Positions 23,978-64,000 are shown, counted from the stretch's first letter. The stretch: 64,000 nucleotides of DNA from Candidatus Omnitrophota bacterium (GCA_028707125.1 JAQTUX010000001.1:1130438-1194437), one strand, 5' to 3'. Program-made: numbers and translations. The notes: a model not told the origin generated them from the letters alone.

Positions 23978-24084
23978 TAGGTTATAATCTATCTACATAT
24001 AGAATATAACCTATATTATCCTATTTGTCAAGTATTTTTGAGTGGAGTTGCGGCCTTGCGGCCGGGGACGAGATGCGGAGAAGC

Positions 24085-24279: not shown

Positions 24280-24612
24280 TATAGCAAAAGGAATGTGTAA
24301 GAAACCACTAACGAATGTATACTCTGCACCTATCTTAAATACATAGCTGATGTCTCCTTAAAAGCCAGCCACAGCAATATAAAAACAATGATTTGACCCC
24401 ACCAGCAATATCCTATAACGTCATAGAATTCTTCGCCCGTTCGATTCATATCTTTCTCCTTTTAGTTCAATAACCGCATATTTGTACTCTTTTAATATCC
24501 TCCATTACAAAGAATGGGATTACTTCTGCAGGGATCATAGAAGGAATTATCGGGGAGCGGACTATACAACCAATCATTAGGGGACGGGGACGGTTCTCCT
24601 TGCTGTTATTTA

Positions 24613-25089: not shown

Positions 25090-25145
25090 ACTTTGCGATG
25101 GATGAAAAGTACCTGTTAGACCCGATCCCCCGCTAGGTTCAATAC

Positions 25146-25532: not shown

Positions 25533-25555
25533 ATTTCTCTCCTATAAATTTAAAA

Positions 25556-45547: not shown

Positions 45548-46754
45548 ATTTTTTAAACACTACTGTCGCGTTGTTGCCGCCGAAGGCAAAGCCGTTGTTC
45601 AATGCCACCCTCACAGCGGCTTTCCTCGCCTTATTGGGAACACAGTCAATATCACATTCCGGATCAGGGGTCTCAAAATTTATGGTCGGAGGCACAATAC
45701 CTTCTTTTATGGCAAGGCAGCAGGCAGCTGATTCAATGGCAGACGCCGCGCCCATAGGATGGCCCAGCATTGATTTTATGGAACTGACCATTACCTCTTT
45801 ATATCGCTCTTTTAATACCTGTTTGATCGCCTGGCATTCCACCTTATCGTTCAAAGGCGTGCCTGTGCCGTGCGCGCTGATGTAATCCACGTCCTTATAA
45901 CCGATACCGGATTCTTTGAGCGCCTTCTCCATCGCCCTGGCGATGCTTTGCGGCTCAGGGGCGGTAGCGTGATAGGCGTCGCAGGAAAGGCCGTATCCCA
46001 GGACCTCCGCGTAGATATCGGCGCCTCTTTTAAGGGCGGAATCAAGGTTTTCAAGAAGGACTATACCGGAGCCCTCTCCCAGTATCATACCCTTTCTGTT
46101 CTTGTCAAACGGCTGGCATTTCTCAGGCGCCATCGCGTAAATGCGCTGGAAGCCGGCAAATGCCACGTGAGAGAAAGCGTCAGAGCCGCCTGCCAGGGCG
46201 TAATCAAGCGCCCCGCTCCTGATCAAATCAGAGCCGTAGCCGACGGCGTAGTTGCCCGCGGCGCAGGCAGTGGGAAAGAGGAAATTCTCTCCCTGCGCCT
46301 TGAACTGCAGAGCAACGTTGGCGGAAATGTTGTTCACCGACGCCTGCATTATCTTCTGCCGGTCAAGTTCCTTCAAGCCGCCTTTAGCCCATACCTCTAT
46401 CAATTCCTCCAATGGCTTCTCCCCGGTGGTAGTGCCTACCAATACGCCTGTTTTCTTCTTAGGCATATCAGCAGCGGCCAATCTCGCGTCCTCCAAAGCC
46501 AGCGTAGACGCGGCGATCGCCAATTGCGACGCCTTCCCCAGGAATTTGACCTTTCTTTTGGGGATGAAAGATTTCGGATTAAAATTTTTTACCTCTCCCC
46601 CATTATGGCACTTGAGGATGCTGGTATCAAGGGAGGTGACTTCGCTTATGCCGGATTTACCGCTGATGACAGACCTCCAGAACTCCTCTCTTCCTATGCC
46701 CACAGAAGAAACTATGCCTATGCCGGTTACAACTATGCGCCTATTGCTTTTCAT
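45537..46754 (-). CDS. fabF: Beta-ketoacyl-ACP synthase II-like (FabF family)
   Basis: PTACAAGNYA Cys. SAHGTGTPLND and IKSMLGHPMGAAS His motifs. Confidence 0.75.
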   Translation of the reverse strand: MKSNRRIVVTGIGIVSSVGIGREEFWRSVISGKSGISEVTSLDTSILKCHNGGEVKNFNPKSFIPKRKVKFLGKASQLAIAASTLALEDARLAAADMPKKKTGVLVGTTTGEKPLEELIEVWAKGGLKELDRQKIMQASVNNISANVALQFKAQGENFLFPTACAAGNYAVGYGSDLIRSGALDYALAGGSDAFSHVAFAGFQRIYAMAPEKCQPFDKNRKGMILGEGSGIVLLENLDSALKRGADIYAEVLGYGLSCDAYHATAPEPQSIARAMEKALKESGIGYKDVDYISAHGTGTPLNDKVECQAIKQVLKERYKEVMVSSIKSMLGHPMGAASAIESAACCLAIKEGIVPPTINFETPDPECDIDCVPNKARKAAVRVALNNGFAFGGNNATVVFKKYEG

Positions 46755-47190
46755 TGTTCTTTATTTTAACGGCAAACGATGTGGTGCTCTTAGCCACTAC
46801 CCTATCCCCCACCCTTGCCGTTGTTTCTATTACCCCGCCTTTGTCTATGATCTTTACATTAACCGCTTCCAATATTAACGTATCGCCGGGATATACGGGA
46901 GACAAAAATTCCGCTTTTACCTTCGCCAGATAATAATCCGGATTCGTTTGGGCGATCTCCGGCTTCTTTGTGTAATAAAGCACTATTGACGCCTGCGCCA
47001 TCGCCTCAATGATCAGCACGCCCGGCATTATCGGTTTACCCGGAAAATGCCCTCTGAAGAAATCCTCTTTTGGGTCAAGGAATCTCCTGGCTACGATGCG
47101 CCTGCCTTCTTCCACCTCAATGACCTCGTCAATGAAGAGGAACGGCTCTCGCTGCGGCAATATGCTTTTGACCTTTTCCTTGTCCCACAT
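46741..47190 (-). CDS. fabZ: 3-hydroxyacyl-ACP dehydratase (FabZ-like hot-dog)
   Basis: HFPGKPIMPGVLIIEAMAQ motif. 149 aa. Confidence 0.8.
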   Translation of the reverse strand: MWDKEKVKSILPQREPFLFIDEVIEVEEGRRIVARRFLDPKEDFFRGHFPGKPIMPGVLIIEAMAQASIVLYYTKKPEIAQTNPDYYLAKVKAEFLSPVYPGDTLILEAVNVKIIDKGGVIETTARVGDRVVAKSTTSFAVKIKNNEKQ

Positions 47191-47198
47191 ATTTATTA

Positions 47199-47432
47199 TT
47201 ACCCCTTTAACTGCCTTGCCATCTCAATTATTTTATTCAGCGTCCTTGCCTTTGGTATCTGGTCTTCAGGCACGACTATCTTGAGCTTCCTTTCGATTGC
47301 CGCCACAATCTCAAGCGACTTCATTGAATCAACTTCCATATCGGCAAAGTCCTTATCGGGCTCAATCTCATTTGCCGGGATCTCAATGATCTCCGATACT
47401 AATTGTGTTATCTGGTTTACCAATTCGTCCAT
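47199..47432 (-). CDS. Acyl carrier protein
   Basis: 77 aa with phosphopantetheine site DMEVDSMKSLEIV. Confidence 0.7.
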   Translation of the reverse strand: MDELVNQITQLVSEIIEIPANEIEPDKDFADMEVDSMKSLEIVAAIERKLKIVVPEDQIPKARTLNKIIEMARQLKG

Positions 47433-47443
47433 ACAAATCCTCC

Positions 47444-48667
47444 TTAGTATTTACCGATCAAACACGACGCGTTATTCCCGCCGGGGGCGAAGTTATTTAT
47501 AAGCACGGCGCCTACTTTCCGCTCTCTGCATTTATTAGGCACATAATCCAGATCGCACTCGGGGTCCCTTTCTTCGTAATTGATCGTGGGCGGCAGAAAA
47601 CCCTCTGATATCGCTCCCACCGAAGCCGCGACCTGCAGGATGCCGGAGGCGCTTACCGGCTCGCCTATCATTGACTTGATGGAGCTCACTGCCACATCCC
47701 CGGCACTGTCTCCGAAGATCTCCTTGATAGCCTCGGTCTCCAGGCGGTCGTGCTGGAGCACGGAATTTGCCGACGCGCAGATATAGCCGATGTCCCGCGG
47801 CCGCAGGCCCGCGTCCTTGATAACGCCTGTCATAGTCCTTTTCAGGCCTTCAGCGCGAGGATGATACTTTCCGCTGCGGTAGGCGTCAAAGAGCGTCGCG
47901 GCGGCAAGCGCCCGCGCGTAGATACGGGCGTTCCTCGCCCTGGCATGTTCCTCATCCTCAACTATCACTACGCCTGCCCCCTCTCCCAGGATTATGCCGT
48001 TCCTCCTTTTGTCAAACGGACACGAGGCCTCAATGCCTTTAATGCCTGCCAGAAAGCCGATCTTGTAAAATCCCACAAAACTCTGAAATGACAAGCCATC
48101 AACCCCACAGACCAATACAGCCTTGGCGCGGCCAAGGCGTATGAAATCAAGCGCGTATTTCAACGCGTCCAGCCCTGCCGTGTAACCGGTGGAGACGGTA
48201 GTGTTGAACCCCTTGATATTGTAACGGATGGATACCTGGCTGGAAGGGGCGTTGATCGTCGTGCCCGGGAACATAGCGGGATTTACGAACTGGGCGCCCT
48301 CCTGCGCGATCTCCTTGCCGAATTCGGCAACATTCCATATTGAAGATAACGTGGTTGCCGTTACCACACCCATGTCATGGGTATTCTCTTCGTTGATCAC
48401 AAGCCCCGAATCATCCAGCGCCATCTTTACCGCCGCGCAAAGAAACCTGGTGCTCCTGTCCATATTCCTGATACCCTTCGCGCCCAGGAACTTCTCCGCC
48501 TCAAAACCGCTGATCTCGCCGGCGAGCTTGGTCTTAAAGAACCCCGTTTCAAAAGAGGTTATCGGCTTGACGCCTGAACGGCCGGCTCTTAATGCCTGCC
48601 AGAATTCATCTTTGCCGATCGCGTTCGGCGCGACAACCCCGATCCCCGTGATCACTATCTTCTTCAT
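47444..48667 (-). CDS. Ketosynthase-like protein lacking the catalytic Cys and second His (chain-length-factor-like)
   Basis: KAS fold throughout, but the active-site position reads VSTGYTAGL (no Cys) and the KSMIGEPVSASG position has Glu for His. Confidence 0.65.
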   Translation of the reverse strand: MKKIVITGIGVVAPNAIGKDEFWQALRAGRSGVKPITSFETGFFKTKLAGEISGFEAEKFLGAKGIRNMDRSTRFLCAAVKMALDDSGLVINEENTHDMGVVTATTLSSIWNVAEFGKEIAQEGAQFVNPAMFPGTTINAPSSQVSIRYNIKGFNTTVSTGYTAGLDALKYALDFIRLGRAKAVLVCGVDGLSFQSFVGFYKIGFLAGIKGIEASCPFDKRRNGIILGEGAGVVIVEDEEHARARNARIYARALAAATLFDAYRSGKYHPRAEGLKRTMTGVIKDAGLRPRDIGYICASANSVLQHDRLETEAIKEIFGDSAGDVAVSSIKSMIGEPVSASGILQVAASVGAISEGFLPPTINYEERDPECDLDYVPNKCRERKVGAVLINNFAPGGNNASCLIGKY

Positions 48668-49407
48668 CGCATTATCATTCCGCCGTCAATGATTATGACC
48701 TGTCCTGTAATGAATCCCGCCTTATCGCTAAGCAGAAAACTCACCAGTTTTGCCACTTCCTCCGGCCTGCCAAACCTGCCCAGAGGGATCTTCTTCAGCA
48801 TCTCTTCTCTGTATTTCTCCTTCAACTCCTTCGTCATATCAGTTTCAATGAACCCGGGCGCGACCGCGTTTACCCTTATGTTGTAGGCAGCAACTTCCCG
48901 CGCCAGCGCCCTGGTAAATCCGATCATCCCTGCCTTCGCGGCTGCATAATTGGTCTGGCGAGGCATGCCGGATATGCCTGTCACCGAAGCAACATTGACA
49001 ATATCGCCGCTTTTCTGTTTTACCAACGTAATTATCGCGGCATTCGTAAGGTTAAACACCCCGTTTAAATTGGTGTCTATCACCTTGTGCCAGTCATCCT
49101 TAGCCATAAGCGCCAGCGCCTTGTCGTTGGTGATGCCGGCGTTGTTAATGACGATATCCAGCGCGCCGAAATATTCCTTTGTATCCTTGACCCACTGCTT
49201 CACCGCTTCAAGATCCCTGATGTCCACCCGGTATGCCTTTGCCTTTACGCCCAAAGACGCGATCTCTTTTTCAAGCTCAACGGCGGTATCCACGCTTTGC
49301 AGGTAATTGAACGATACATTGGCGCCGCCTTTGGCCAACTCCAGAGCGATAGCCCTGCCTATGCCGCGCGTGCCTCCGCTTATAATGGCTGTCCTGCCTT
49401 TAATCAT
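48664..49407 (-). CDS. fabG: 3-oxoacyl-ACP reductase (SDR, FabG-like)
   Basis: TAIISGGTRGIGRAIA, NNAG, YAAAKAG SDR motifs. Confidence 0.8.
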   Translation of the reverse strand: MIKGRTAIISGGTRGIGRAIALELAKGGANVSFNYLQSVDTAVELEKEIASLGVKAKAYRVDIRDLEAVKQWVKDTKEYFGALDIVINNAGITNDKALALMAKDDWHKVIDTNLNGVFNLTNAAIITLVKQKSGDIVNVASVTGISGMPRQTNYAAAKAGMIGFTRALAREVAAYNIRVNAVAPGFIETDMTKELKEKYREEMLKKIPLGRFGRPEEVAKLVSFLLSDKAGFITGQVIIIDGGMIMR

Positions 49408-49780
49408 TGCCCAGGTTCCTTTTGACCTTATCGATCAGCTCGGTTATATCAAAGGGCTTAAATATATAATCCGCGACCTTCAAATCCAGCGCCTCTTTAT
49501 ATTTGCTCTCATCGGCGTAACCGGTGATCAGTATTTCGGGCACGGGTTTCTTGCCTGCCTCCTTCAAATAATCCCGGATCCGCCTGATCGTCTCTATCCC
49601 GTCTATATCGGGCATCCTGATATCGGAAATGATAAGATGGAAGTCCACTTTTTTGACCTCCTCTATCGCCTCTTTTCCGCTCTTTACCACTGTCGCGTTG
49701 TGGCCCTGGCTGCTGAGTAATTTACGCAAACTTTTAACTATCAGCTCATCATCATCAATGACTAAGATGTTCTTGCTCAT
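49400..49780 (-). CDS. Single-domain response regulator (CheY-like)
   Basis: ILVIDDDEL...IISDIRMPDIDGIE. Paralog of 38931..39317. Confidence 0.8.
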   Translation of the reverse strand: MSKNILVIDDDELIVKSLRKLLSSQGHNATVVKSGKEAIEEVKKVDFHLIISDIRMPDIDGIETIRRIRDYLKEAGKKPVPEILITGYADESKYKEALDLKVADYIFKPFDITELIDKVKRNLGND

Positions 49781-49783: not shown

Positions 49784-51964
49784 CTACCTCCCCTTGCCGG
49801 CGTCCGCCGCGTTTGCTGCCGGTAATCTGACAGTAACAACCGTCCCCTTATTCAACTCGGAATCAATGCTGATCGTGCCTTTGTGCTTTTCAACAATGGA
49901 CTGGCATATGGAAAGGCCCAGCCCCAGCCCCTTTCCCACGTCCTTGGTAGTGAAAAAAGGGTCAAAGATCTTCCGTTGTATATCCCTGGATATGCCTGTG
50001 CCTTCATCCTCCACGGCTATCGCGACCCATTTGCCGTTCCTGGATAATGTTACGCGGATGTCCCCGCTTTTCTTTATCTTCCTTATGGCGTCCCTGCCGT
50101 TTAAGATTATATTGGTCAATACCTGTTCCAGTTCGTTGGGATTGCCCTTGACAACATAGCCGTCCTTCTTAAGGTCGGCGACGATCCTGACGTTCTCCTG
50201 TTCCAGCTGATAGCCGATAAAACTCATCACGCTCTTGAACACATCCGACAGATCCACTTCGGAAAAATCTACCGCTTCAAGCGGCTTCCTGCCGTAGGCC
50301 ATCAGCTTCTGCACGATCGTGCGGCACCTCCTGGTCGCCTCTTCTATGATCTCAAGGGACTCCCTGTCCATCCCTGTATCTACGGCTAAAAGCATCTGGA
50401 CGTTGGTCAGTATCGCCGCCAGAGGATTGTTGATCTCATGCGCCACGCCGCCTGCCAGAGTACCTACCGTCGCCAGTTTCTCCGCCTGGACCAGCTGTTT
50501 CTGCACCTCAACCAGCTCCCTGGTCCTCTGCCTGACCTGATCTTCTATGTTCTCATACAAGAGGGCGTTCTCAATGGCTAAAGCGGCCTGGCTTGCCAGA
50601 ACAGAAAAGGCATTCAGATCTTCCTGCGTATAGGTCTTCTCAGAAAGCTTGTCCCCCAATATAAGAAAACCCAGCAGCTTATCTTCCGAAAAGCTGGGCA
50701 CGACTACGGCGGCGTCCAAAAGTTCCAACTGTTTTTCCAAACTCTCAAGCCCGGAATCAACATCTTCTTCTGTTTCCCGCTTTATTTCTTCGTGCACTAT
50801 CGGCTCGCGCCCGTCTTCAAGGCATTTGATCAACCGGGTTTCTCTGCCTATGGACGCGGGCTGACCCTGTTTCAAATTCCCCCCCGCCTTCAAAACAAAC
50901 TTTCCGCCTTCTTTATCATATAAATATATCGCCGAATGAGAAATATGGACGTTCTGAATGACAATATTCACGAAAAAATGCAATAACTCCTGCAGGCTGT
51001 GGATCCGGGTCATCCCCATCCCCGCCTGCTTTAAGATCTCCTGATAACGCCTCTGCTCCTTAAGCAGGCCTTCTTCGGCTTTACGCTGCAGGTAAATATA
51101 AACCAGGGTGGCAACCGTAGCCAGGACCGCTATTGAACCCGACGGCAGTATCCACCAATTTACCCCGAAATTAGCGACGAAGAGGTCCTTAAGCCGCAAA
51201 GCCAGGGCAAAAGGTATACCCAAAAGCAAGGTATAAACCGCTATAAAGATCCCTGTGCGGGTAATGGCGACCTTTATATCCATAAGACGGTAGCGGAGTA
51301 TGGCGTAAGTGACCATAAAGAAGTATAAGGGGACGGTAAAGTTCAAAATGGGATAAAGGTTCAGGCCGAAACAGGGCAGGAAAGACGTCCCCCCGCCCGC
51401 GAAGCCCAAAGCGGCGGCAGAGAGAAAATACTTGATCTGATCGCGCTTCAGGCCGCTCATCTTTTTATAATTTATTACCAGTTCAATATGGCCGTACAGC
51501 ACCAGTCCGGCAAAGTAAAAGATGACGAACAGATAAAGCAGCGGCCCGCCGGGATAAACAAAATATACCGGCTTGACCCACTTCAAGTCCGTAAAATATA
51601 AGGTACAGCTATTGATAAAAAGGCCCTTAAAGAAAATGTCGGATACCAGGAATATAACAGCCCATAACCCTAAGAATCTGATAAAAAGAGGATGTTTAAT
51701 GTGCAGGAATTCATAAATAAGGTATACAAATGAGAACGGTATTAAAATGATCCCCACATAAGCGAACTGCCACCAGAAAAATGCCTCTGACGCGCTTTCG
51801 GCGTGGCTGACCATAAATGCCCCGAACCCGTAAAAAGAGGTAGCGAAAGCAAAAATAGACCACTTCCTGGCCAGTTTAGTCCTGTAGCCTTTGACATAGA
51901 CAAAGACCGCCATGGATAGACTGGTGATCGCCGTTAATATACTGGATATGCCGTAAAGGTTCAT
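49784..51964 (-). CDS. Sensor histidine kinase (7TM N-domain, GAF, HisKA, HATPase_c)
   Basis: N-terminal 7TM. HisKA VAHEINNPLAAI. ATPase DEGTGI...GLGLGL. Paralog of 39328..42231 with a single 7TM unit. Confidence 0.8.
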   Translation of the reverse strand: MNLYGISSILTAITSLSMAVFVYVKGYRTKLARKWSIFAFATSFYGFGAFMVSHAESASEAFFWWQFAYVGIILIPFSFVYLIYEFLHIKHPLFIRFLGLWAVIFLVSDIFFKGLFINSCTLYFTDLKWVKPVYFVYPGGPLLYLFVIFYFAGLVLYGHIELVINYKKMSGLKRDQIKYFLSAAALGFAGGGTSFLPCFGLNLYPILNFTVPLYFFMVTYAILRYRLMDIKVAITRTGIFIAVYTLLLGIPFALALRLKDLFVANFGVNWWILPSGSIAVLATVATLVYIYLQRKAEEGLLKEQRRYQEILKQAGMGMTRIHSLQELLHFFVNIVIQNVHISHSAIYLYDKEGGKFVLKAGGNLKQGQPASIGRETRLIKCLEDGREPIVHEEIKRETEEDVDSGLESLEKQLELLDAAVVVPSFSEDKLLGFLILGDKLSEKTYTQEDLNAFSVLASQAALAIENALLYENIEDQVRQRTRELVEVQKQLVQAEKLATVGTLAGGVAHEINNPLAAILTNVQMLLAVDTGMDRESLEIIEEATRRCRTIVQKLMAYGRKPLEAVDFSEVDLSDVFKSVMSFIGYQLEQENVRIVADLKKDGYVVKGNPNELEQVLTNIILNGRDAIRKIKKSGDIRVTLSRNGKWVAIAVEDEGTGISRDIQRKIFDPFFTTKDVGKGLGLGLSICQSIVEKHKGTISIDSELNKGTVVTVRLPAANAADAGKGR

Positions 51965-53235
51965 TTCAGCCGTTTAGCGAATCTTTTAGCAAGCGCGATT
52001 ATAGTCAAGATGGGCGGCACTCCGGGGCTTTTCGGCAATACGCTCGCGTCGCAGACAAAAAGCCTTTTTATCCGCGTTTCCAGTTCCCTGTCAACCACCT
52101 CGTCTATGGCCGCCGTGCCGCCGGGATGCGCCCCGCGTACCTTTGTCACGGCTATCGTGCGCGGCAGGCATCCTGCCTCAAGCAATATCCTGCCTGAGAT
52201 CTCGGCGCCCTTATTCAATTTGGACAAATCAGCAGGGGTCAACGTTTTCTCCACTACCCCGTCTTTACGCACGCCGCCTTGCGGATCATCGTCTATCTTT
52301 GTCATAATCCCGAGCATCCTGTCTCTATGCCTGAATTTCAGAATGTGCCTGAAAGGCGAAACGGATACGTAGGCAAGCGCGCAGTCAATAAAGGGTGACA
52401 AAAGAAAACCGTCCTGTATATTCACCGCCGCCATCGTTACTTCTTTATCCATTCCTGTGTCTTTAGTCAGCCCGATAGTGACGTTAAAAAGGTCTAAAAA
52501 CAATTTCCTGCCTGCCTCTATCCCTGAATTCTGCAAGATCACCGGCGTGCCGATGCCTCCCGCCGCCAGGATCACTGTGTTGGCGCGTATCTCTATCTTT
52601 CTTCCCGCCCTGCCGCGGCCTTCTACTCCCGCGGCCCTGCCTTCGGAAACAAGGACTTTAGTAATATCAGCGCCCGCGAGCAAAGAAGCGCCGTTGTCCC
52701 GCGCCTCTTTCAAATAAGTAAGCGCACTCCATCTTGCCGTAGTGCGGCAGCCCAGCACACAGTTGCCGCAAGAAACGCATTTCCTGAAATCAATGATCTT
52801 CGGCATAGGCATCATCTTAAAACCGAGTTTATCCGCCGCATCCATGATCCTTTTCGTGCCTCTGCCTATAAACCTGTCCGGCACCGGCGTGACAGCGAGT
52901 TCCTTTTCGGCCTCAAGGAACTCCTGCGTCAGATCCATGCCCAGGTTCTTGAATTCCGCCTCAAGCCCCCTGACGCCGTTACCGCAGCTGACAAGGGAGG
53001 TGCCGCCTACTGCTATGGAACGATAAAAGAAAACCCCTTGCCTGCTCCTGCTCAACAGGCCTAACCTATCGTACAGGTTGACTGCCGCGTAAAATTGCGA
53101 ACCGAATTTCTTCCGAGCCAGATCAGGGCCCTTCTCCACGACCAGGACCTTCCTGCCGTTCTTCGCCAGCTCTCTGGCTAAAGTTGACCCTGCTACACCG
53201 GAACCAACGATGACAATATCGCTATCCATCCTCAT
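51961..53235 (-). CDS. GMC-family FAD-dependent oxidoreductase
   Basis: DIVIVGSGVAGSTLARELAKNGRKVLVVEKG. C-terminal GMC-type HPGGTAAI...FVCDASVLP motifs. Confidence 0.65.
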   Translation of the reverse strand: MRMDSDIVIVGSGVAGSTLARELAKNGRKVLVVEKGPDLARKKFGSQFYAAVNLYDRLGLLSRSRQGVFFYRSIAVGGTSLVSCGNGVRGLEAEFKNLGMDLTQEFLEAEKELAVTPVPDRFIGRGTKRIMDAADKLGFKMMPMPKIIDFRKCVSCGNCVLGCRTTARWSALTYLKEARDNGASLLAGADITKVLVSEGRAAGVEGRGRAGRKIEIRANTVILAAGGIGTPVILQNSGIEAGRKLFLDLFNVTIGLTKDTGMDKEVTMAAVNIQDGFLLSPFIDCALAYVSVSPFRHILKFRHRDRMLGIMTKIDDDPQGGVRKDGVVEKTLTPADLSKLNKGAEISGRILLEAGCLPRTIAVTKVRGAHPGGTAAIDEVVDRELETRIKRLFVCDASVLPKSPGVPPILTIIALAKRFAKRLK

Positions 53236-53264: not shown

Positions 53265-54833
53265 TCAGACCTTTATCGTTTCTTTTACCCTGCCTACCAT
53301 TGAGGCGTCCACTAATTTATCTCCCCAATAAAAATCAGACACCTCAAAGCCGTGTTTGGCGCCCAACAACCGTATCTCTTCCATTTTTTCGGACGTGATG
53401 TTTCCTCTGCCGAAACTGAAATTCTCGTAGCGTTTCTCAAGCGCCAAAATGATCGCCTCGGAAAAACAGCCGTAGAGGACGTTTCCCGGCGGAAGCCCTA
53501 TATCAATAGGTATATGAATGGGCGTGGGCGCCTTTGCCATGCCGCCTGAAAATATCAGCACATCCTGCCTGGATACCGGCGCGTAAGAGATATTCTTGGG
53601 GTATCCCACGTCGCAGATTATGGCGCCGGGCTTAAACCACTCTATCTTCAGAATGGAGGCGCTGGCTGCTGCCGCGGCGATAACAATATCGGCGTCCCTC
53701 ACGGCTGCCTCGTTATCGGTCGTGGCCGCTATCCTTGCCTTTCTCTTCTTTGACAGCTCCTTTTTCATCTTCGCGAGGTTTGATTTTGTGCGCCCGGTTA
53801 TGGTCACCTGCGCCGCCTTTTCCGACAACACCCTGGCGCAGGCGCTTCCGATGTCGCCGGTGCCTCCTATAACGGTGGCCTTCGCGGCTGAGATGTCCAG
53901 ATCCAGCATACGGGAGGCCTTGAGCACGCCTTCAACAGCCATTGCCGCGGTAAAGGTATTTCCCGTCGTCACTGCCACGTCCACCTCGTTGGCGATCTCC
54001 TGCCCTATCCTCTCCGCCACAATAGAGGTAAAGCCGCCGAGAGTGACTATGCCCACGCCGTATTTCTCGGCGATCCTGCAGGCCCTGACCACCTTGGCGA
54101 ATATGGACCACATATCCTTCTCTATCATATCGGGGATAAATGTGGCGATGATAAAACAGCCGTTTGTGACCGCGCCGGCATTTGACTTGACGTTCATAAT
54201 ATCGTATAGCTTGAAAGAAGGCGCTACGTTGAAAAGCTGGCCGAGGAATTCCCGCGAAGGCATCTTGATATCGGGCTTGAGCGCCTGGAGGTATTTCTGC
54301 CAGTGGTTATAATTATAGGGATGGCCGATGATCCCGAAACCCGCCACCTTGTCTTTGTCGCCGTGCTTGAAACTGGCGTAACGCAGAGATATCAGGCGGC
54401 GCTCCATCGCGTCCAGGATCGCCTCAAAATTACTCGTGACCAGCTTCTTTATAAAATCGTCGGCGAAGTCGGCGATCACGGGTATGCCCACCCTTATCTG
54501 GACATTCACAATCACCTCGGTGCCTTCGGGGTGCTTCTTGAAGATCCACTCGCCCTTGAACTCTTCCAGGTCGCCCTCTACGGCATTAAAACGGACGGTG
54601 TTATTCCTCAGATCAAGAGTGTCTTCCTCTACCCAGCTTATGGGGACATTGTTGACCTCAACCCTCCATTTCGTCTTCATCTTGTTGCGGCTTTTCTCTA
54701 CGACCGACGCCTCTTTTACATGCACCATATAACTGGGGAAATCCTCAACCTTTGTTATGAGGCGGATCACCTTCCATTCCGGGGCAGGCACCACCTTTGA
54801 TAAACGTATCTTCATTACCTCCTCTTTAGCCAT
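53265..54833 (-). CDS. Fusion protein: N-terminal SRPBCC (START/polyketide-cyclase-like) domain + long-chain acyl-ACP reductase (cyanobacterial AAR)-like domain
   Basis: C-terminal ~340 aa has GFGIIGH, LGGFTSI, TTGNTFTAA, VIGGTGDIGSACARVL, DVGYPKN, FSFGRGNITSEKMEEI...HGF. These match the conserved blocks of acyl-ACP reductase (Pfam Shikimate_DH-like). The N-terminal ~150 aa resembles an SRPBCC ligand-binding fold. Confidence 0.6.
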   Translation of the reverse strand: MAKEEVMKIRLSKVVPAPEWKVIRLITKVEDFPSYMVHVKEASVVEKSRNKMKTKWRVEVNNVPISWVEEDTLDLRNNTVRFNAVEGDLEEFKGEWIFKKHPEGTEVIVNVQIRVGIPVIADFADDFIKKLVTSNFEAILDAMERRLISLRYASFKHGDKDKVAGFGIIGHPYNYNHWQKYLQALKPDIKMPSREFLGQLFNVAPSFKLYDIMNVKSNAGAVTNGCFIIATFIPDMIEKDMWSIFAKVVRACRIAEKYGVGIVTLGGFTSIVAERIGQEIANEVDVAVTTGNTFTAAMAVEGVLKASRMLDLDISAAKATVIGGTGDIGSACARVLSEKAAQVTITGRTKSNLAKMKKELSKKRKARIAATTDNEAAVRDADIVIAAAAASASILKIEWFKPGAIICDVGYPKNISYAPVSRQDVLIFSGGMAKAPTPIHIPIDIGLPPGNVLYGCFSEAIILALEKRYENFSFGRGNITSEKMEEIRLLGAKHGFEVSDFYWGDKLVDASMVGRVKETIKV

Positions 54834-55416
54834 GCGTCATCTCCTCTATTGTATTTTTTAATTTATGGATACATTCCTGCATATAAATATCATCTATTAT
54901 CTCGTGGTGCATCTTCATAAGGTATTGCGGCTTGCCTATCATGATCCTGATAGGGCGCAGCCTGGGGAACTTCGCGCTTCTGGGGAACGCCTCGAAGGCG
55001 CCCATGATGGCGCAGGGCAGTATGGGCCTGCCGGTCTTAAGCGCCAGAAGCGCCACGCCCCTTCTGAACGGCCTCATCTTGCCGTCGCGCGTGCGCGTGC
55101 CTTCGGGAAAGAGCCCGACATTCCTGTCGTGGAACAACAGGTCTACCGCGTGCTTTGAAGAGCTCCCGCTCGCCAGCGTTTTGAGCCTGCGCATAAACCA
55201 ACGCAAGCCCAGCATAAAATGGAACTGCCTTAAGGCGATCCAGTAGATCTTTTTCGGTATTGCCGCGCCCACAATAAACGGGTCAAGGAAACTTACGTGG
55301 TTTGCCACTACGATAAAATTCCCCTTCCTCGGTATATTATCCCTGCCCTCTATCTTAAGCCGGAAAAACACCTTGAGTATAATAAACCCTAAATCCCTGA
55401 ATATCCAATACCACAT
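54826..55416 (-). CDS. 1-acyl-sn-glycerol-3-phosphate acyltransferase (PlsC-like)
   Basis: HX4D motif VANHVSFLD and FPEGTRTRDG. The start is placed at the internal Met so that it abuts the upstream HTH gene. Confidence 0.7.
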   Translation of the reverse strand: MWYWIFRDLGFIILKVFFRLKIEGRDNIPRKGNFIVVANHVSFLDPFIVGAAIPKKIYWIALRQFHFMLGLRWFMRRLKTLASGSSSKHAVDLLFHDRNVGLFPEGTRTRDGKMRPFRRGVALLALKTGRPILPCAIMGAFEAFPRSAKFPRLRPIRIMIGKPQYLMKMHHEIIDDIYMQECIHKLKNTIEEMTHG

Positions 55417-55417: not shown

Positions 55418-55654
55418 CTAAAGTTGTTGTTCTGCCTTCCGCCGCTCTTTGCCGGTGGTATGATACTCAATCTTTTCCTGCATCCATCGTTCCAACGACT
55501 TGCGTTGGAACCGCCAATCCGCCCCGATCTTAAACGCCGGGATCCTGCCCTGCCTTGCCATACGCTGTACAGTCAATGGGTGAATGTTAAGGAATTCCGC
55601 CACGTCCTTAGTTGTCATTATCTGTTTTGATATTTTATTATTTGACATATCCAC
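55418..55654 (-). CDS. Small HTH DNA-binding protein (excisionase/MerR-like HTH_17)
   Basis: MTTKDVAEFLNIHPLTVQRMARQGRIPAFKIGADWRF. First gene after the consensus promoter. Confidence 0.6.
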   Translation of the reverse strand: MDMSNNKISKQIMTTKDVAEFLNIHPLTVQRMARQGRIPAFKIGADWRFQRKSLERWMQEKIEYHTTGKERRKAEQQL

Positions 55655-55694
55655 CCCAACCTAAACATACCTAAACATATTATATGAGATAATA

Positions 55695-55723
55695 ATTATA
55701 GAGGACGGGCGCTATTATGTCAA
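55695..55723 (-). promoter_or_regulatory. Sigma70 consensus-type promoter TTGACA-N17-TATAAT for the HTH-led operon
   Basis: Minus strand reads TTGACAtaatagcgcccgtcctcTATAAT, ~35 nt upstream of the HTH start at 55654. Confidence 0.5.
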
Positions 55724-59519: not shown

Positions 59520-62500
59520 TTAGTTTGGATTAGGATAGGCATCTATAACTCTATTTTCTCCATGTATTTGGAATTGAGGGGCGCCTCCTCCTGTATTAGG
59601 CAATCTAAATACAGCATTATTCGGTGCTAACACATCAACAAACCACTCTCCAACACCGGCGCGTGGTTGACTTACAAACCTCCTAAACTCGGCTGGATTC
59701 AGTCTCATCGCCATTTTTCCTGTAGCTGGATCGATAGCATTGTGGAGCGTAACATAAGAATCAGGGTTCAATCCCCAAGGAGATTTTCTAATAAGCGCCG
59801 CTGATACCTTATCGGTCCCATGCAAATATCTCCCCCAACCATACCTCTTTGTGCTGCGCGCTGTTGAAGCAGTTGCCTCTGCTGCTAAGCCAGCTTGGGG
59901 GATAGCTCCTGCGCCAGCGCCAACAGGTGGGGATACAATTGGCGGTAAGACACCTTGACTTACAAAATGATCTACGGATAATCCGTGCGCAAAAGTCTGA
60001 TAGCCGCCTAAATAGGAACCCTCAATTAAACCGCCGGTTATCGCACCTATGCCAAAGCCGATACCACCGGCTTTCATTGCATCACCAAAGCTTCCACCTG
60101 AACCCAATGTCTCACCGAAGGCACCGCCAAAACCCGCGGTTCCCATCTCAGCGGCGCCGATGAGGAAACCACCGCCAAAGGTATAAGTTGATTCGCCAAG
60201 GCCTTTCGCTATGCCGGTGGCCCAACCAACACCCGCCATCCCGCCTAAGATACCGCCTGCTAACCCACCTGCAAAACCACCCCAGTTCCCGGTGTTGACC
60301 GCATTACCGAAGGAATTAAACAAATTAAACAGCTGGAAGCCAAACATCATGTTGCCGGTAAGGAGAGTACCAAGGATTCCAGCTATGATACCGAAAAACT
60401 TACCGAAGTGCTTCTTAAACCACCCATGACCTGTCGGATCAACCAGGTTGATCGGATTGTTATTGCAATAGGAGTAGCGGTTGAGGGTTTGCGGATTGTA
60501 GGAATCCTGGACTATGGTATCCGCTTGGGTGAAGCGGCCGATGGTTGGGTCGTAGTAGCGGGCGCCGTAGTAATACAACCCGCTCTGGTCGAGCTCTTTG
60601 CCGTTGTAGTAGCGGTTAGCGGCGACTGATCTGTCGTCAGGGGTTGGCGAGCCGGAAACAAACTCTCCATACGGTGCGTAGTGGGCCTCCTGGACAATCG
60701 CACCGCTGTTATTGGTGATGACGCTGGAGGAGCCGAGGTGATCGCTATGGAAATATGAAATTACTTCGTTGGTACCTTCAATATTATCTTGCAGTGGTGA
60801 GCTAGTTATTGTGCAGATACGGTTGCTTCCCAAAAAGATATGTTTAGTACGTTTCGTCAATAAAGCCGCTGAAATAGCCCTAACAATGGAATTATCACCA
60901 TTGCCTGAACCTGTGGTAATCTCATATAGAGAACCAACATATTTGGTAGCTATGTCCCCTGCTGTCTTCTTCACCCTTCCGCCGTCGCCGTCGTAGGCGT
61001 AAGAAGCGAGGGTCTCCAGCGTAGAAACCGGCTGGCTGGTAACAGTAAGGGCGGCGCCGTTTGAAGAGGTAACGTAGACATAATAGTTTCTGTTAACTTC
61101 CAGTGCCTCAAAGTCATTGAATTTCGCGATACCCACGTAGTGCTCGTAGCTTTGCGTGCTGGTATTGTAGCGGGAGATCTGGTCAAATTCTCCTTTTATC
61201 GGCGCGAAGATCTGGTCTATACGGCTGTCTTCCGGCAGACGCGGGAAGAAAATGAGGTTCCAGCCCTGATGCAGCTCATAGGTGTCTATCCCGTCGTCAA
61301 ACGCTCCTCTCTCTATACAGGTGAGCCGGTTCTCTATGTCATAGATGAAGTTCTGGCCTGCCTTGACCGTCATGTTGCCGTTGGCGTCGTATTCAAACTC
61401 CGTGCCGTCGGAAAGCGCCCTTACCGCGTGGGGCTTGTTGCGGCTGTCGTAGGTGAATGTCAGGCCGTCTTTTTCAATGATGTTGCCTATGGAATCGTAA
61501 TCATAGGACTTTACGCCGTAGGCGCCTTGCGCCTGCGTGAGCCGGCCCAGGTCATCATAGGTAAAGGACTGATCAAAAGAGCGGTTCTTGTTGTCGGTTA
61601 TGTTGCTTATATTGCCGTCGTTGTAGAAATCATAATGCAAACTTTGGAGCGTGCCGGCGCTGGACTCTGTTGATATATCTGAAAGCCGCAGCATATTGTC
61701 GTAGGCGTAATCGGTAACCGCGCCGTTACCATAGGTAATGCTCTTGATCTGGCCTGTAGAGTGATAAATGACATTCTGGACAATGGTTCCCTGGGGGATG
61801 TTAGAAACTGACGTTGTATCTTCCGCAATGCGCTCCTGGCCGGGCGGGGTAAAGTTTGAGTTCCAGCGGGCAATGCCTTTTGAGACGCGGAATTCATCAA
61901 GCCGGCCGTCAAGGTGATGCTTGCCTTCCATATCCACGCTGATCTTTAGCGGCGCGTTGGAATCGGGCATTGTCCCAAAAGGACTATACGCCGTCACATT
62001 AAGCGCGGCTCCGTTCAGGAACATACGGCAGGCGCTCCCGTCCCTTACCACCGCGAAATGATACCAGGTATCAGTGGTGACGTTAAAACCGGAACCTACA
62101 AAGTCGCCCGCGTAAACCCCTTCGGACAGCGCGCTAAAGCCCGCGTTCCCTGCCGGCGGATTGAGAGTAATATACCAAAGGTTTTTGTAATCACTGTCGG
62201 TTTGCTGGGCGATCGTAACGGAGGACGCCATAGTATTAAACTTGACCCAGAAATCTATGGTGAAGTCACCGCTGCCAAAATTCCAGCCCTCGTTGTCGGT
62301 TATTGAAAGATAGCTTCCTTCCTTCCCGTCTAATAGAAGCGAGCCGCTGCCGAATCTCTGCTCCTGGGTATCTATATAGGCGTTGCCAGAGAAGGCCACC
62401 GGATTACCCAGGTCGTCAAAGGTAAATGTGTCGCCCTGGCTGCCGTCAAATCCCAGCTGCAGCCGCGTATAGCTGTCGGGATTGGCGTATGTATCAGGCA

Positions 62501-64000
62501 GAGACGCGACATCGGGCGGCTGTCCGGGATTTATATTACGGTTACCGGCTTCGGAGCCGTTCCCGGTAACGTGCACGGCTCCCTGCGGGCCGTAGGCATA
62601 CCATACGCGCGATGAATCGGGATAGATCACTGAAGTAAGCCGGTCAAGCGGGTCGTAGGCGCGTTCAACCGTATACGAAACGCCGTCTATTGACTTGAGC
62701 GACTTGACTTCCCTGCCCAGGTTGTCATAGAAGAAATCAGTTGAGCCGGATGGATAGGTCACGCGGGAAAGCCGGCCGATGCAATTTTGTTTGGAAGAAT
62801 CATCGTAGGCGTACGCCGCTAATATTGTTGAGTCGGTATATTTTCTGGTCAGGCGGTTCAGGGCATCGTAGTCAAATCTTAACACCTGGCCTTTCGCGTC
62901 GGTCTGATTCATAAGGTTGCCGGCCGCGTCATATTCATAACGCCACTCCCCCATATCCGGGTCGTTCATATAGAGTTTTCTGCCGAGGGAGTCGTAGGTT
63001 ATTCGCGTGGTATTGCCTTGATCATCAACAATCCCGGTTAAGTTACCCAGTGGATCATAAACATACCTGGTGGTGTATTGCGCGCCTTCATTAAATTCCC
63101 GCGCCTGGGCCACCCTGCCGAAGCTGTCGGATACAGTGGTCTTATAACGGCCTGCCTCATCGGTCACGGTCACCTCTAAGCCGTTATACGCGGTTGATAC
63201 GTACGTCCCATCGGGATTGGTAACCCGGCTTATTCTGCCCGCGGGGTCATAGTCATAGACGACCTTGGTGATATCGGAGATGACGTCTCTGTTAAGCTGG
63301 GCGCTGGAGCGGACATAGTAGGGCCGGTATTTCTCTTTGGCTCTGCCTGCCGCGTCGTAAACCACCCTGCCTGAAACCACCTGTTTGCCTGATTCGTTCG
63401 CCGGCGACTTCTCCTGCATCAGGCGGCCCAGGCCGTCAAAAAATGAGTAAGAGTGATAATAGCCGGCCGGTTGAGAAGAATATTTTACCTTCTTTATGAC
63501 CTTGACCGGGCTGGTGTCCAGCCGGTATTCATAAGAAACTGCGGGATACTCCTCGGTATCATTTGGGCCGACTACCTTCCAGAGCCGGCCGAGCTTATCG
63601 TAGATGTTCCTGGTCGTCTGGCCGTTGGGGTCGGTGGTGGACTTTACCTGGCCGAACAGGCCAAAGCCGAAACCGTTACTTTCATTTACGCCGTAGTATT
63701 CGGTCTTAACTGTGTGGCCCAGGGCATTACGCACCTCAACCGGAAAGGCGCGGTAGGTGTTATCATAAATAGTAGTGGTGACATTCCCCTTAGGGTCGGT
63801 CGTCTTTACAAGGTTGCCGTAATCGGCATAGAGCGGATCTGATGAAGACAGGCCATTATCATACGTATAGCCCGAAGTGTATAATGTATCGCTGTTTGTC
63901 AGGGGGTTGTGGCAGGTGACCGCCTCGGATGACGGCTGGCCGTTAGAATTGTACGCGACGGATTTCCTGTTCCAGGTAGTGTCATCTGAAATTACATTTA
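59520..64000 (-). CDS. RHS-repeat polymorphic toxin with LamG/ConA-like insert, glycine-zipper segment and C-terminal toxin domain. The reading frame stays open to the right window edge, so the gene is 5'-partial.
   Basis: YD repeats continue in frame from 64000 with no stop (the track start at 63734 is just the first GTG). LamG-like block ...LDGRLDEFRVS... RHS core ends GARYYDPTIGRFTQADT...NLVDPTGHGWFKK. It is followed by a Gly-rich zipper and a unique ~150-aa tail. Confidence 0.8.
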   Translation of the reverse strand, partial: NVISDDTTWNRKSVAYNSNGQPSSEAVTCHNPLTNSDTLYTSGYTYDNGLSSSDPLYADYGNLVKTTDPKGNVTTTIYDNTYRAFPVEVRNALGHTVKTEYYGVNESNGFGFGLFGQVKSTTDPNGQTTRNIYDKLGRLWKVVGPNDTEEYPAVSYEYRLDTSPVKVIKKVKYSSQPAGYYHSYSFFDGLGRLMQEKSPANESGKQVVSGRVVYDAAGRAKEKYRPYYVRSSAQLNRDVISDITKVVYDYDPAGRISRVTNPDGTYVSTAYNGLEVTVTDEAGRYKTTVSDSFGRVAQAREFNEGAQYTTRYVYDPLGNLTGIVDDQGNTTRITYDSLGRKLYMNDPDMGEWRYEYDAAGNLMNQTDAKGQVLRFDYDALNRLTRKYTDSTILAAYAYDDSSKQNCIGRLSRVTYPSGSTDFFYDNLGREVKSLKSIDGVSYTVERAYDPLDRLTSVIYPDSSRVWYAYGPQGAVHVTGNGSEAGNRNINPGQPPDVASLPDTYANPDSYTRLQLGFDGSQGDTFTFDDLGNPVAFSGNAYIDTQEQRFGSGSLLLDGKEGSYLSITDNEGWNFGSGDFTIDFWVKFNTMASSVTIAQQTDSDYKNLWYITLNPPAGNAGFSALSEGVYAGDFVGSGFNVTTDTWYHFAVVRDGSACRMFLNGAALNVTAYSPFGTMPDSNAPLKISVDMEGKHHLDGRLDEFRVSKGIARWNSNFTPPGQERIAEDTTSVSNIPQGTIVQNVIYHSTGQIKSITYGNGAVTDYAYDNMLRLSDISTESSAGTLQSLHYDFYNDGNISNITDNKNRSFDQSFTYDDLGRLTQAQGAYGVKSYDYDSIGNIIEKDGLTFTYDSRNKPHAVRALSDGTEFEYDANGNMTVKAGQNFIYDIENRLTCIERGAFDDGIDTYELHQGWNLIFFPRLPEDSRIDQIFAPIKGEFDQISRYNTSTQSYEHYVGIAKFNDFEALEVNRNYYVYVTSSNGAALTVTSQPVSTLETLASYAYDGDGGRVKKTAGDIATKYVGSLYEITTGSGNGDNSIVRAISAALLTKRTKHIFLGSNRICTITSSPLQDNIEGTNEVISYFHSDHLGSSSVITNNSGAIVQEAHYAPYGEFVSGSPTPDDRSVAANRYYNGKELDQSGLYYYGARYYDPTIGRFTQADTIVQDSYNPQTLNRYSYCNNNPINLVDPTGHGWFKKHFGKFFGIIAGILGTLLTGNMMFGFQLFNLFNSFGNAVNTGNWGGFAGGLAGGILGGMAGVGWATGIAKGLGESTYTFGGGFLIGAAEMGTAGFGGAFGETLGSGGSFGDAMKAGGIGFGIGAITGGLIEGSYLGGYQTFAHGLSVDHFVSQGVLPPIVSPPVGAGAGAIPQAGLAAEATASTARSTKRYGWGRYLHGTDKVSAALIRKSPWGLNPDSYVTLHNAIDPATGKMAMRLNPAEFRRFVSQPRAGVGEWFVDVLAPNNAVFRLPNTGGGAPQFQIHGENRVIDAYPNPN

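Follow-up and report, generated by a model that had tools for sequence, protein, structure and literature searches.

An SRPBCC domain fused to an acyl-ACP reductase-like enzyme in Omnitrophota: a conserved catalytic constellation, an invariable sensor-kinase neighbour and a variable enzyme slot

Acyl-ACP reductase (AAR; ACP, acyl carrier protein) is known almost solely as one half of the cyanobacterial alkane pathway, and the handing on of its insoluble aldehyde is a recognised problem. The Omnitrophota, a widespread uncultured phylum, are very small cells that may depend on hosts, and almost nothing is known of their physiology. Here we describe a gene from a stretch of 64,000 nucleotides of a Candidatus Omnitrophota bacterium (GCA_028707125.1, JAQTUX010000001.1:1130438-1194437; hereafter the window) which encodes a 522-residue protein with an SRPBCC/START domain at its N-terminus and an AAR-fold thioester reductase domain at its C-terminus (Table 1). 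The gene lies within a string of genes from 55654 down to 39328, all minus-strand and separated by -14 to +105 nt, in which it is followed by a gene for a sensor kinase with a seven-transmembrane (7TM) module. A first-pass annotation of this DNA had proposed the fusion, flanked by genes for a GMC oxidoreductase and a PlsC acyltransferase, and both the fusion (by Pfam, NCBIfam, PDB sequence matches and Foldseek) and its two neighbours (51961..53235 and the PlsC matches) were borne out.

The SRPBCC-AAR fusion is real and its domain matches are far beyond chance. The N-terminal domain matches Pfam PF03364 (Polyketide_cyc) at residues 15-137 (E 5e-16; 59.5 bits against a gathering threshold of 23.4), with the START-like protein TTHA0849 (2D4R; E 3e-19) as the closest solved sequence in a search of the PDB. 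Residues 166-497 match positions 2-335 of the 339 in NCBIfam TIGR04058 (long-chain acyl-ACP reductase; E 6e-51), the best PDB sequence matches of this domain being AAR (6JZQ; E 1e-36) and PigE (4PPM; E 1e-28), while Pfam returned the generic Shikimate_DH-type Rossmann match alone (residues 307-417). The N-terminal reductase part of the PigE model NF053554 fitted as well as TIGR04058, but its 174 bits compare with 850 required, positions 2-345 of 837 being covered and the aminotransferase domain absent. An AlphaFold2 model of the whole protein, built from a 50-sequence alignment, had a mean pLDDT of 89 and a pTM of 0.87. When searched with Foldseek, residues ~166-520 of the model ranked the AAR crystal structures first (6JZY, 6JZZ, 6JZU and 6JZQ; E 3e-26, target-normalised TM 0.83-0.86, rmsd ~3 Å, 28-30% identity) and the terminal amidation domains (TADs) of nonribosomal peptide and polyketide synthases (NRPS/PKS) second (TM ~0.7, 17-19% identity), and the N-terminal domain matched 2D4R (TM 0.92) followed by the type II PKS aromatase/cyclases (ARO/CYC) ZhuI, TcmN and WhiE (TM 0.75-0.79, 16-21% identity). 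The SRPBCC domain of the model consists, by DSSP, of a beta-sheet and a long C-terminal helix (residues 118-156) leading into the reductase domain. In the family alignment W56, F82, G87 and G94 are invariant, D88 is the sole near-invariant polar residue, and the conserved aromatics W56, W67, F82 and W96 are compatible with a hydrophobic lipid cavity but do not prove one.

An identity as AroE or glutamyl-tRNA reductase was rejected, the hemA model scoring 35.7 bits against a cutoff of 209.6 over the Rossmann part only and neither fold appearing in the Foldseek top 50. The affinity to AAR proposed in the first-pass annotation therefore stands, at 174 bits against 36 for glutamyl-tRNA reductase and with all top Foldseek matches being AAR; the length of 340 residues given there for this part does not, its extent being ~357 residues.

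All of the AAR motif blocks that had been read from the sequence were found in the protein (Table 1), which is 34.7% identical to Synechococcus elongatus AAR over 288 positions in a pairwise alignment. In AAR, C294 is the acyl-enzyme nucleophile, and a pocket of R189, R193 and R314 takes the NADPH 2'-phosphate or the CoA 3'-phosphate (PMC7089970). The nucleophile aligns with C456 and E297 with E459; D244 corresponds to D408, Y247-N250 to Y411-N414, R189 to R348 and R314 to R476, while R193 is lost to N352. As such the active-site cysteine is present as predicted, but not where it had been placed: the cysteine adjoining DVGYPKN is C407, at the position of Ile243 in AAR, and was rejected as the catalytic residue in favour of C456. 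An alignment of 242 relatives showed the catalytic cysteine in 120/120 close fusions, 16/17 distant fusions and 104/105 stand-alone proteins; R348, E459, the TTG motif and the glycine-rich loop are conserved to a similar degree. With good confidence the fusion protein is predicted to be an aldehyde-forming thioester reductase. C332 and C407 are invariant or nearly so in the AAR-like clade described below and absent from cyanobacterial AAR; C407 immediately precedes the DxGYPKN loop, and redox control or a second nucleophile may be raised as possibilities for the pair.

The TADs share the invariant cysteine and the TTG motif, receive their substrates from carriers, have an NAD-selecting aspartate and are without demonstrated reductase activity (bioRxiv 10.1101/2024.10.28.620694). 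Their position as the second-best folds raises the alternative that the protein, in the manner of TADs, carries out non-reductive chemistry on a cysteine-bound acyl intermediate, or that it is a ligand sensor or regulator reporting acyl-ACP or NADPH status, for which the N-terminal PilZ and HTH_17 domains of some distant relatives and the density of signalling proteins in the neighbourhood could also be cited. Such a role is decidedly improbable. Both R476 and an NADPH-type arginine after beta-2, where TADs have their aspartate, are retained, identity to AAR is 28-30% against 17-19% to TADs, hundreds of sequences keep the whole catalytic constellation unchanged, as would be expected of an enzyme, and the aldehyde-acting enzymes encoded nearby (see below) favour an aldehyde product.

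The label cyanobacterial-type given in the first-pass annotation is too specific for the reductase, and the fusion, which was not recognised there, is not rare. More than 120 clusters, with hundreds of full-length homologs at 64-72% identity, were found, every named one from Omnitrophota, where they are common under generic names such as 'SRPBCC family protein' or the JGI label 'fatty aldehyde-generating acyl-ACP reductase'. All 20 of the 20 loci confirmed in GTDB species genomes are Omnitrophota metagenome-assembled genomes, a few of them with automatic 'Planctomycetales' labels. An exhaustive profile-free search of 1.8 billion cluster representatives gave 3058 relatives, 372 of them below 1e-30, including further fusions at 28-56% identity and many AAR-like proteins of 350-380 residues. 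None of the nearest 150 representatives (50%-identity clusters) was more than 36% identical to Synechococcus AAR, and in a neighbour-joining tree with cyanobacterial AAR as the outgroup no sampled relative grouped with it; the tree is compatible with either one or two origins of the fusion. The TIGR04058 score of 173.7 bits lies below the curated equivalog cutoff of 449.7. Because of these three results the reductase domain is assigned, by sequence, to a large non-cyanobacterial AAR-like clade and not to the alkane-pathway family. In rare distant relatives the reductase carries an N-terminal PilZ domain or HTH_17 and PilZ domains, and one protein (P0135) combines HTH_17, PilZ, SRPBCC and AAR-like domains; a homolog search seeded with a PilZ-bearing relative returned nine proteins with 'bacterium' as the sole label. 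A more distant stand-alone AAR-like subfamily of ~365 residues (L113, L115 and also L105, L109 and L114) was also seen, with genes downstream of L113 and L115 that resemble greA and lysS over their N-terminal sequences, in a housekeeping context with no kinase or SRPBCC gene.

These results bear directly on whether the gene could be a true cyanobacterial-type AAR acquired horizontally with the alkane pathway, in which AAR is paired with the aldehyde-deformylating oxygenase ADO. The shared fold and catalytic residues and the JGI label on some homologs would be in keeping with this, yet the score of 174 against 450 bits, the identity of ~35% and the non-cyanobacterial character of the 150 nearest representatives are not. 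Further, no ADO or other ferritin-like gene was present among the scanned open reading frames (ORFs) of the window or among the labelled neighbours of the ~100 related loci inspected. ADO is dependent on O2 and most Omnitrophota have been described from anoxic habitats. Taken together these observations leave the alkane pathway barely credible as an explanation.

A different partner is suggested by the SRPBCC domain. Related loci (115) were collected and annotated against a panel of Pfam-identified reference genes, and in 82 of them (73 non-redundant) SRPBCC is fused to the reductase. The two closest relatives that are nominally stand-alone (L032 and L033-35) have a separate Polyketide_cyc gene encoding 156-160 residues directly upstream, which overlaps the reductase gene or sits 6 nt away from it. 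Likewise, L096-102 have a split SRPBCC and AAR-like pair, again with the SRPBCC gene directly upstream, in a different gene context which, by its sequence motifs only, resembles acyl-AMP ligase, thiamine pyrophosphate (TPP) enzyme, SRPBCC, AAR-like, ACP and glycosyltransferase genes. Two proteins that are fused in some lineages and encoded side by side in others classically work together, and the SRPBCC-reductase pair is read in that way here.

In AAR, H7-A37 at the N-terminus makes up the last part of the acyl tunnel as well as the docking surface where ADO takes over the aldehyde (PMC7089970). The equivalent of AAR H7 in the fusion protein, the invariant H171, lies ~15 residues beyond the long SRPBCC helix, with the SRPBCC domain joined ~10 residues ahead of the segment that is the aldehyde exit and docking surface in AAR. 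The AlphaFold2 model indicates a fixed inter-domain arrangement (linker pLDDT ~90, pTM 0.87). Because the H171 segment follows the SRPBCC helix and the linker is confidently modelled, we infer that the SRPBCC domain would occupy the position of ADO and accept the aldehyde; that it takes the place of ADO as acceptor or carrier of the insoluble aldehyde is an evenly balanced proposal.

The first-pass annotation had treated the GMC and PlsC genes as the defining context, but across the family neither is. PlsC is directly upstream in 35 of the 73 non-redundant fused loci, and GMC is present in 6 of the 63 loci with enough downstream sequence, whereas a HisKA_7TM-GAF kinase is encoded downstream on the same strand within five genes in all 63. 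The kinase linkage holds down to 28% identity (L026 and L028). The gene or genes between the reductase and the kinase, hereafter the slot, were tallied across the 63 loci. The slot is empty in 39; it holds an HpnA/OleD-like extended short-chain dehydrogenase/reductase (SDR) in eight, often followed by a 511-residue protein of no assigned family or a formyltransferase-like protein, the GMC flavoprotein in six (including this window), and in five a class-III aminotransferase, which scores 439 bits to the corresponding part of PigE, with a GNAT gene after it. Single cases have an Old Yellow Enzyme, a LuxD-family acyl-ACP acyltransferase fused to a methyltransferase or a B12-radical-SAM enzyme, and in the split SRPBCC/reductase version the slot holds a TPP-dependent enzyme. 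Nearly every identifiable slot enzyme is from a class able to act on aldehydes, fusions of a response regulator with aldehyde dehydrogenase are encoded nearby, and PigE couples the same reductase fold to an aminotransferase via an aldehyde (PMC8341465). These classes, with the PigE precedent, are the strongest contextual support for an aldehyde product.

Recurring neighbours include a FadL/Toluene_X outer-membrane channel, an acyl-ACP desaturase and a SAM methyltransferase after the regulator, and the neighbourhoods are rich in kinases, response regulators, HD-GYP-like domains and cyclase domains. Receiver domains are fused to aldehyde dehydrogenase, ketosynthase (KS) or class III nucleotide cyclase in nine loci (L024, L025, L028, L048, L056, L060, L066, L079 and L083), which by their sequences implies lipid enzymes that would be controlled by phosphorylation. 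Selfish elements occur in or beside some of the operons (L036/L037, 9613..10446; L084, 9612..9956; L001, 5980..8352), with an MNT/HepT toxin-antitoxin pair and a GIY-YIG gene in the reductase-kinase slot and IS200-type Y1 transposases and Fic genes nearby.

The kinase is a mosaic, its sensor half (7TM and GAF, residues ~1-450) being variable and its core (HisKA and HATPase, residues ~495-726) conserved. In a first sample of 16 Omnitrophota loci the reductases were 55-75% identical in all pairs, and the kinase core (53-76%) tracked the reductase (Spearman 0.60). The sensor half was uncorrelated with the reductase (rho 0.04); within the GMC type its identity was 44-66% and within the SDR type 61%, against 19-25% across types. 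Sliding windows of 50 residues revealed a sharp boundary near kinase residue 450: against an SDR-type locus (L001) the kinase of the window gave identities of 18, 20, 11, 31, 35, 19, 16, 11 and 28% and then 60, 84, 64, 60 and 68%, and against a GMC-type locus (L004) 42-84% along the whole protein.

The sample was enlarged to 57 de-duplicated loci, 18 of them with a GMC, SDR or aminotransferase slot, and 5000 permutations were made. The sensor was 44.2% identical between loci of the same slot type and 24.4% between loci of different type, a difference reached in 0/5000 permutations; the reductase differed less (52.9 against 45.9%; 16/5000), as did the kinase core (58.8 against 50.8%; 3/5000). 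Restricted to pairs with reductases 55-75% identical, same-type and different-type identities were 54.3 and 21.3% for the sensor, 63.1 and 65.9% for the reductase and 69.5 and 62.6% for the core. Because the sensor alone differs strongly by slot type, the slot enzyme and sensor half vary as one contiguous unit between conserved flanks. Variation of this kind, seen in the sequences of these loci, suggests a sensor that recognises the tailored product, as would be expected if the two were matched; that the 7TM-GAF kinase does sense such a product is a prospect falling a little short of even.

Table 1. Features of the operon, the fusion protein and its motifs; coordinates are those of the window
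Feature	Residues	Coordinates	Strand	Basis or remark
Sigma-70 consensus TTGACA-17-TATAAT, probable operon promoter		55695..55723	-	12/12 consensus; Omnitrophota preferences may differ
HTH_17 (excisionase/MerR-like) small DNA-binding protein, first operon gene		55418..55654	-	ORF; tblastn to Pfam-annotated HTH_17 genes in related loci
PlsC/LPLAT-family acyltransferase		54826..55416	-	PF01553 E 1e-24; Aas-like NF006386 E 2e-26
Fusion gene, SRPBCC and AAR-fold thioester reductase	522 aa	53265..54833	-	ATG start; ORF call, Pfam, NCBIfam, PDB search, AlphaFold2, Foldseek
SRPBCC/START (helix-grip) domain	8-156	54366..54812	-	PF03364, Foldseek, model DSSP
AAR-fold NAD(P)H-dependent thioester reductase domain	166-522	53268..54338	-	TIGR04058, 6JZQ, Foldseek
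Motif GIIGH	167-171
Motif LGGFTSI	265-271
Motif TTGNT	289-293
Dinucleotide-binding loop GGTGDIG	323-329	53847..53867	-	AAR GATGDIG 162-168
Motif DVGYPKN	408-414
C456 codon, predicted acyl-enzyme nucleophile (in LYGCFSEA)	456	53466..53468	-	AAR C294
Motif FSFGRGNITSEKMEEI	472-487
Motif HGF	494-496
GMC-family flavoprotein, slot enzyme	424 aa	51961..53235	-	GMC_oxred_N E 2e-25; GMC_oxred_C E 1e-8
GMC Cys motif C-x2-C-x2-C-x3-C	153-163	52747..52779	-	Invariant in 10/10 orthologs
HisKA_7TM-GAF-HisKA-HATPase sensor kinase	726 aa	49784..51964	-	Pfam
CheY-like response regulator, single domain		49400..49780	-	Counterparts at this position in related loci are annotated Response_reg by Pfam
FAS/type II PKS-like gene set (next six rows)		44276..49407	-	Junctions -14 to +11 nt
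FabG		48664..49407	-	Pfam, NCBIfam
KS_A without Cys/His/His, CLF-like		47444..48667	-	Pfam, NCBIfam, active-site check
ACP		47199..47432	-	PP-binding E 1e-14
FabZ		46741..47190	-	Pfam, NCBIfam
KS_B		45537..46754	-	Catalytic triad intact
KS_C		44276..45547	-	Catalytic triad intact
23S-rRNA-IVP-type four-helix-bundle gene		43866..44225	-	Inserted between KS_C and CrtI-like gene; operon otherwise tightly packed
CrtI/phytoene-desaturase-family flavoprotein		42228..43760	-	Near end of gene string; Amino_oxidase E 3e-24
Second 7TM kinase	967 aa	39328..42231	-	HisKA_7TM module tandemly duplicated (two Pfam stretches), then GAF, HATPase

In the window the operon thus opens with a probable promoter and a small HTH_17 gene (Table 1). 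A perfect tandem 10-bp direct repeat (TATGTTTAGG, two copies, 55660..55679, minus strand) between the -10 box and the HTH_17 start was considered as a conserved operator and rejected, being absent from the equivalent position in 114 other loci, nor are single copies bearing one mismatch over-represented in the window. The PlsC gene likely begins at the ATG at 55416 (the ORF listing gives a TTG at 55470), it retains both the HX4D (NHVSFLD) and the FPEGTR motif, and at its stop it shares 8 nt with the start of the fusion gene. The cysteine motif of the GMC protein suggests, from its sequence, an Fe-S-linked dehydrogenase rather than an oxidase. The protein is unusually short, its cysteine motif is ferredoxin-like and, in our own reading against the GMC consensus, a proline stands at the usual position of the second catalytic His/Asn; it may represent an Fe-S-linked GMC subfamily from anaerobes.

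Downstream of the kinase and CheY-like regulator lies a set of genes resembling those of fatty acid synthase (FAS) or type II PKS, comprising a chain-length factor (CLF)-like KS, two KS with intact triads, ACP, ketoreductase (KR) and dehydratase (DH) and no enoyl reductase; the same set follows the kinase-regulator pair in L016, L023, L050 and L051. The CrtI-family protein near the end of the gene string scored 151 bits with TIGR02734 (crtI_fam), below the cutoff of 238, and the product of the set together with this enzyme could possibly be unsaturated or a polyene. This gene content raises the alternative of a type II polyketide-style pathway in which SRPBCC would be an aromatase/cyclase or dehydratase acting on a KS/CLF-built ACP chain (poly-beta-keto or polyene) and the AAR-like domain would provide reductive release. 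ZhuI, TcmN and WhiE as the next-best folds after TTHA0849 would be consistent with this, as would the occurrence of a split SRPBCC and AAR-like pair in the apparent acyl-AMP ligase-TPP-ACP-glycosyltransferase cluster of L096-102. However, the KS/ACP set accompanies the fusion in a minority of loci, the best fold match (TM 0.92) is a START protein from outside the PKS families with identity to ARO/CYC proteins at 16-21%, and the SRPBCC domain has D88 as its single near-invariant polar residue. The polyketide-style pathway is accordingly judged improbable.

The coupling to PlsC brings in a second alternative, that of membrane-lipid remodelling, in which fatty aldehyde or alcohol from the reductase and the translationally coupled PlsC would go into alkyl- or alkenyl-ether, fatty-alcohol-derived or wax-type glycerolipids in bulk, with the 7TM kinase sensing a membrane state such as thickness or fluidity and regulating the pathway. 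Besides the overlapping PlsC gene with its intact motifs, directly upstream in 35/73 loci, the neighbourhoods contain acyl-ACP desaturase and KS/ACP/KR/DH genes and fusions of response regulator and KS, and the window itself has MGDG-synthase-like and LpxL-like genes; a sensor of the 7TM kind could plausibly respond to membrane state, and ElbD and the FAR/GNPAT pair offer parallels (see below). Against this, PlsC is missing from the more divergent half of the family while the kinase is always present, and slots with aminotransferase and GNAT, TPP enzyme, Old Yellow Enzyme or LuxD-like acyltransferase-methyltransferase resemble small-molecule tailoring more than the assembly of bulk lipid. In addition, the window yielded no ether-forming enzyme of the AGPS-like or PlsA/Ger-like kind, and the co-variation of both the cytoplasmic GAF and the 7TM module with the slot enzyme is unexplained by the sensing of membrane state. 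Membrane-lipid remodelling is consequently viewed as unlikely. The first-pass annotation had suggested fatty aldehyde or alcohol, or an ether- or wax-type lipid, as the product; the aldehyde has gained support from gene context, while an ether or wax lipid is possible without being the best-supported reading.

The reading preferred here is a composite one, in which an acyl-ACP reductase passes its aldehyde to the fused SRPBCC domain and a tailored lipid is sensed by the kinase; as a whole it commands about half of our confidence. Acyl-ACP, which we infer to be the substrate and which in this genome would probably be supplied by the dedicated KS/CLF-ACP-KR-DH set, would dock and transfer its acyl group to C456 in an AAR-type ping-pong reaction. 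NADPH, held by the GGTGDIG loop, R348 and R476, would then reduce the thioester to the aldehyde, which would exit by the N-terminal tunnel into the cavity of the tethered SRPBCC domain and be passed to the lineage-specific tailoring enzyme, here the GMC flavoprotein with its Cys4 motif. The product would be read by the 7TM-GAF kinase, with the CheY-like regulator feeding back, the most economical reading being that the tailored aldehyde derivative is the cue for the kinase, either as feedback or as a cell-cell signal. PlsC could act by esterifying a hydroxylated product, or it could share its pool of acyl-ACP with the reductase. In this scheme the reductase would be the constant first step of a modular operon of promoter, HTH_17, (PlsC), reductase, slot enzyme, kinase and CheY-like regulator.

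Several observations weigh against this composite. At the level of the enzyme, two of the three NADPH-pocket arginines (R348 and R476) are retained and N352 replaces the third, R193, the TIGR04058 score is far below the AAR equivalog cutoff, the members of the AAR-like clade are known here from their sequences, and to our knowledge no organism carrying the clade is in pure culture. The coupling to PlsC, seen in half of the loci, would suit a membrane-lipid role just as well. For the sensing step, the slot gene lies physically next to the part of the kinase gene that codes for the sensor, such that joint exchange by recombination with no ligand-receptor tie is conceivable, and in the 39/63 loci whose slot is empty the sensors are nonetheless of several types, so that the sensor may track something besides tailoring.

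Elsewhere in the window are very large toxin-like genes (7035..16792, 26849..30673 and 59520..63734, all minus strand). An SpvB-domain protein (1128 residues) adjoins a protein with TcdB_midN and RHS (2122 residues), an arrangement reminiscent of Tc toxin B/C, and there are two further RHS-repeat proteins, one of them with a DUF4329 end; DUF4329 is also encoded on its own at 25556..26242. At 22743..25089, in the stretch of lowest GC in the window (dip at 24001..26000, GC 0.38 against ~0.48), an AbiEii toxin gene is accompanied by an HTH_3 partner and a fragment of an IS200-like transposase; this region is probably a small mobile island. A 2557-residue protein encoded at 31120..38793 (minus strand) has repeated FlgD-Ig, PPC and CHU_C/Por_Secre_tail (type IX secretion sorting) domains.

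The enzyme fold and its chemistry are already known. The SRPBCC partnership, the invariable link to a HisKA_7TM-GAF kinase, the interchangeable slot and the co-variation of sensor and slot appear to be undescribed: full-text searches turned up no published account of an SRPBCC-AAR fusion and no relevant work on HisKA_7TM, and a broad search on Omnitrophota and lipids gave unrelated ether-lipid papers alone. The family shows the AAR fold to be much more widespread than the alkane pathway, with a repeated pairing to an SRPBCC partner, fused or adjacent, suggested in place of ADO. This pairing offers a testable model for aldehyde capture and a possible part for engineering the production of fatty aldehydes, alcohols or amines, and the co-variation of sensor and slot points to a candidate ligand class for the uncharacterised HisKA_7TM-GAF kinases and suggests that Omnitrophota may have a signalling or feedback system based on lipids. 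If membrane-lipid remodelling were true, this operon would be a candidate source of the alcohol-derived or non-isoprenoid ether lipids of anoxic sediments, which would be of geochemical interest. A more speculative extension of the composite, which we hold tentatively and consider somewhat doubtful, is that the SRPBCC-reductase, slot enzyme and 7TM-GAF kinase make up unrecognised lipid-aldehyde-derived signalling cassettes with agr-like specificity groups in Omnitrophota and related uncultured bacteria. Were this so, each lineage would make a different small lipid (an alcohol or acid, an N-acyl amine, an acyloin and so on) read by a matched sensor module, the FadL-type channels of some loci could serve in uptake, and the fusions of response regulator with KS or aldehyde dehydrogenase could close feedback at the level of the enzyme.

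Pairs of a synthase for a fatty-acid-derived signal and a membrane sensor kinase are familiar from CqsA/CqsS, LqsA/LqsS, RpfF/RpfC and PhcB/PhcS, and agr has a hypervariable specificity cassette. The present operons are parallel in working to the four pairs in that a lipid-modifying synthase gene adjoins that of a multi-pass membrane histidine kinase, and resemble agr in having a contiguous variable block (slot enzyme and sensor half) between conserved synthase and kinase-core sequences. Unlike those systems, with which there is no sequence relationship, the sensor has a cytoplasmic GAF domain, such that sensing could be intracellular, and the operons are known here as genes. Myxobacterial ElbD combines a reductase with AGPAT, and the eukaryotic ether-lipid logic pairs FAR with GNPAT; in both, as here, a thioester reductase is combined with a PlsC/AGPAT-family acyltransferase. 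ElbD, however, is a single multidomain protein with an SDR-type reductase, whereas here no AGPS-type enzyme was seen and PlsC is missing from half of the family.

The SRPBCC domain shares the helix-grip fold of TTHA0849, of the ARO/CYC proteins TcmN, ZhuI and WhiE and of COQ10/RatA-type lipid binders, none of which is fused to or partnered with an AAR-fold reductase. The TADs (PDB 9E4S-9E56) are distantly of the same fold as the reductase domain and share the cysteine and TTG motif with it. They differ in that the fusion protein has Arg348 at the post-beta-2 position (AAR R189) and is free-standing, whereas TADs are embedded in megasynthases.

With cyanobacterial AAR (6JZQ, 6JZU, 6JZY and 6JZZ) the fusion protein shares the three-part fold, the cysteine, TTG, GxTGDIG, two of the three arginines, D-x-G-Y-P-K-N and the glutamate of C-x-x-E, and by these residues it would probably carry out the same ping-pong reduction of a thioester to an aldehyde. 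In contrast, it carries SRPBCC at the N-terminus, where ADO docks non-covalently in AAR, has lost R193, has the extra family-invariant cysteines C332 and C407, and is encoded in a sensor-kinase operon of a non-photosynthetic uncultured phylum. PigE and TamH, from the prodigiosin and tambjamine pathways, likewise have an AAR-fold reductase domain, and PigE passes its aldehyde directly to a partner enzyme; in some loci of the SRPBCC-reductase family a PigE-like class-III aminotransferase is the next gene. The product context of the family is unrelated to pyrrole pigments, and where PigE has an aminotransferase fused at its C-terminus and no SRPBCC domain, here the partner enzyme is separate and interchangeable and the fused domain is of the lipid-binder type.

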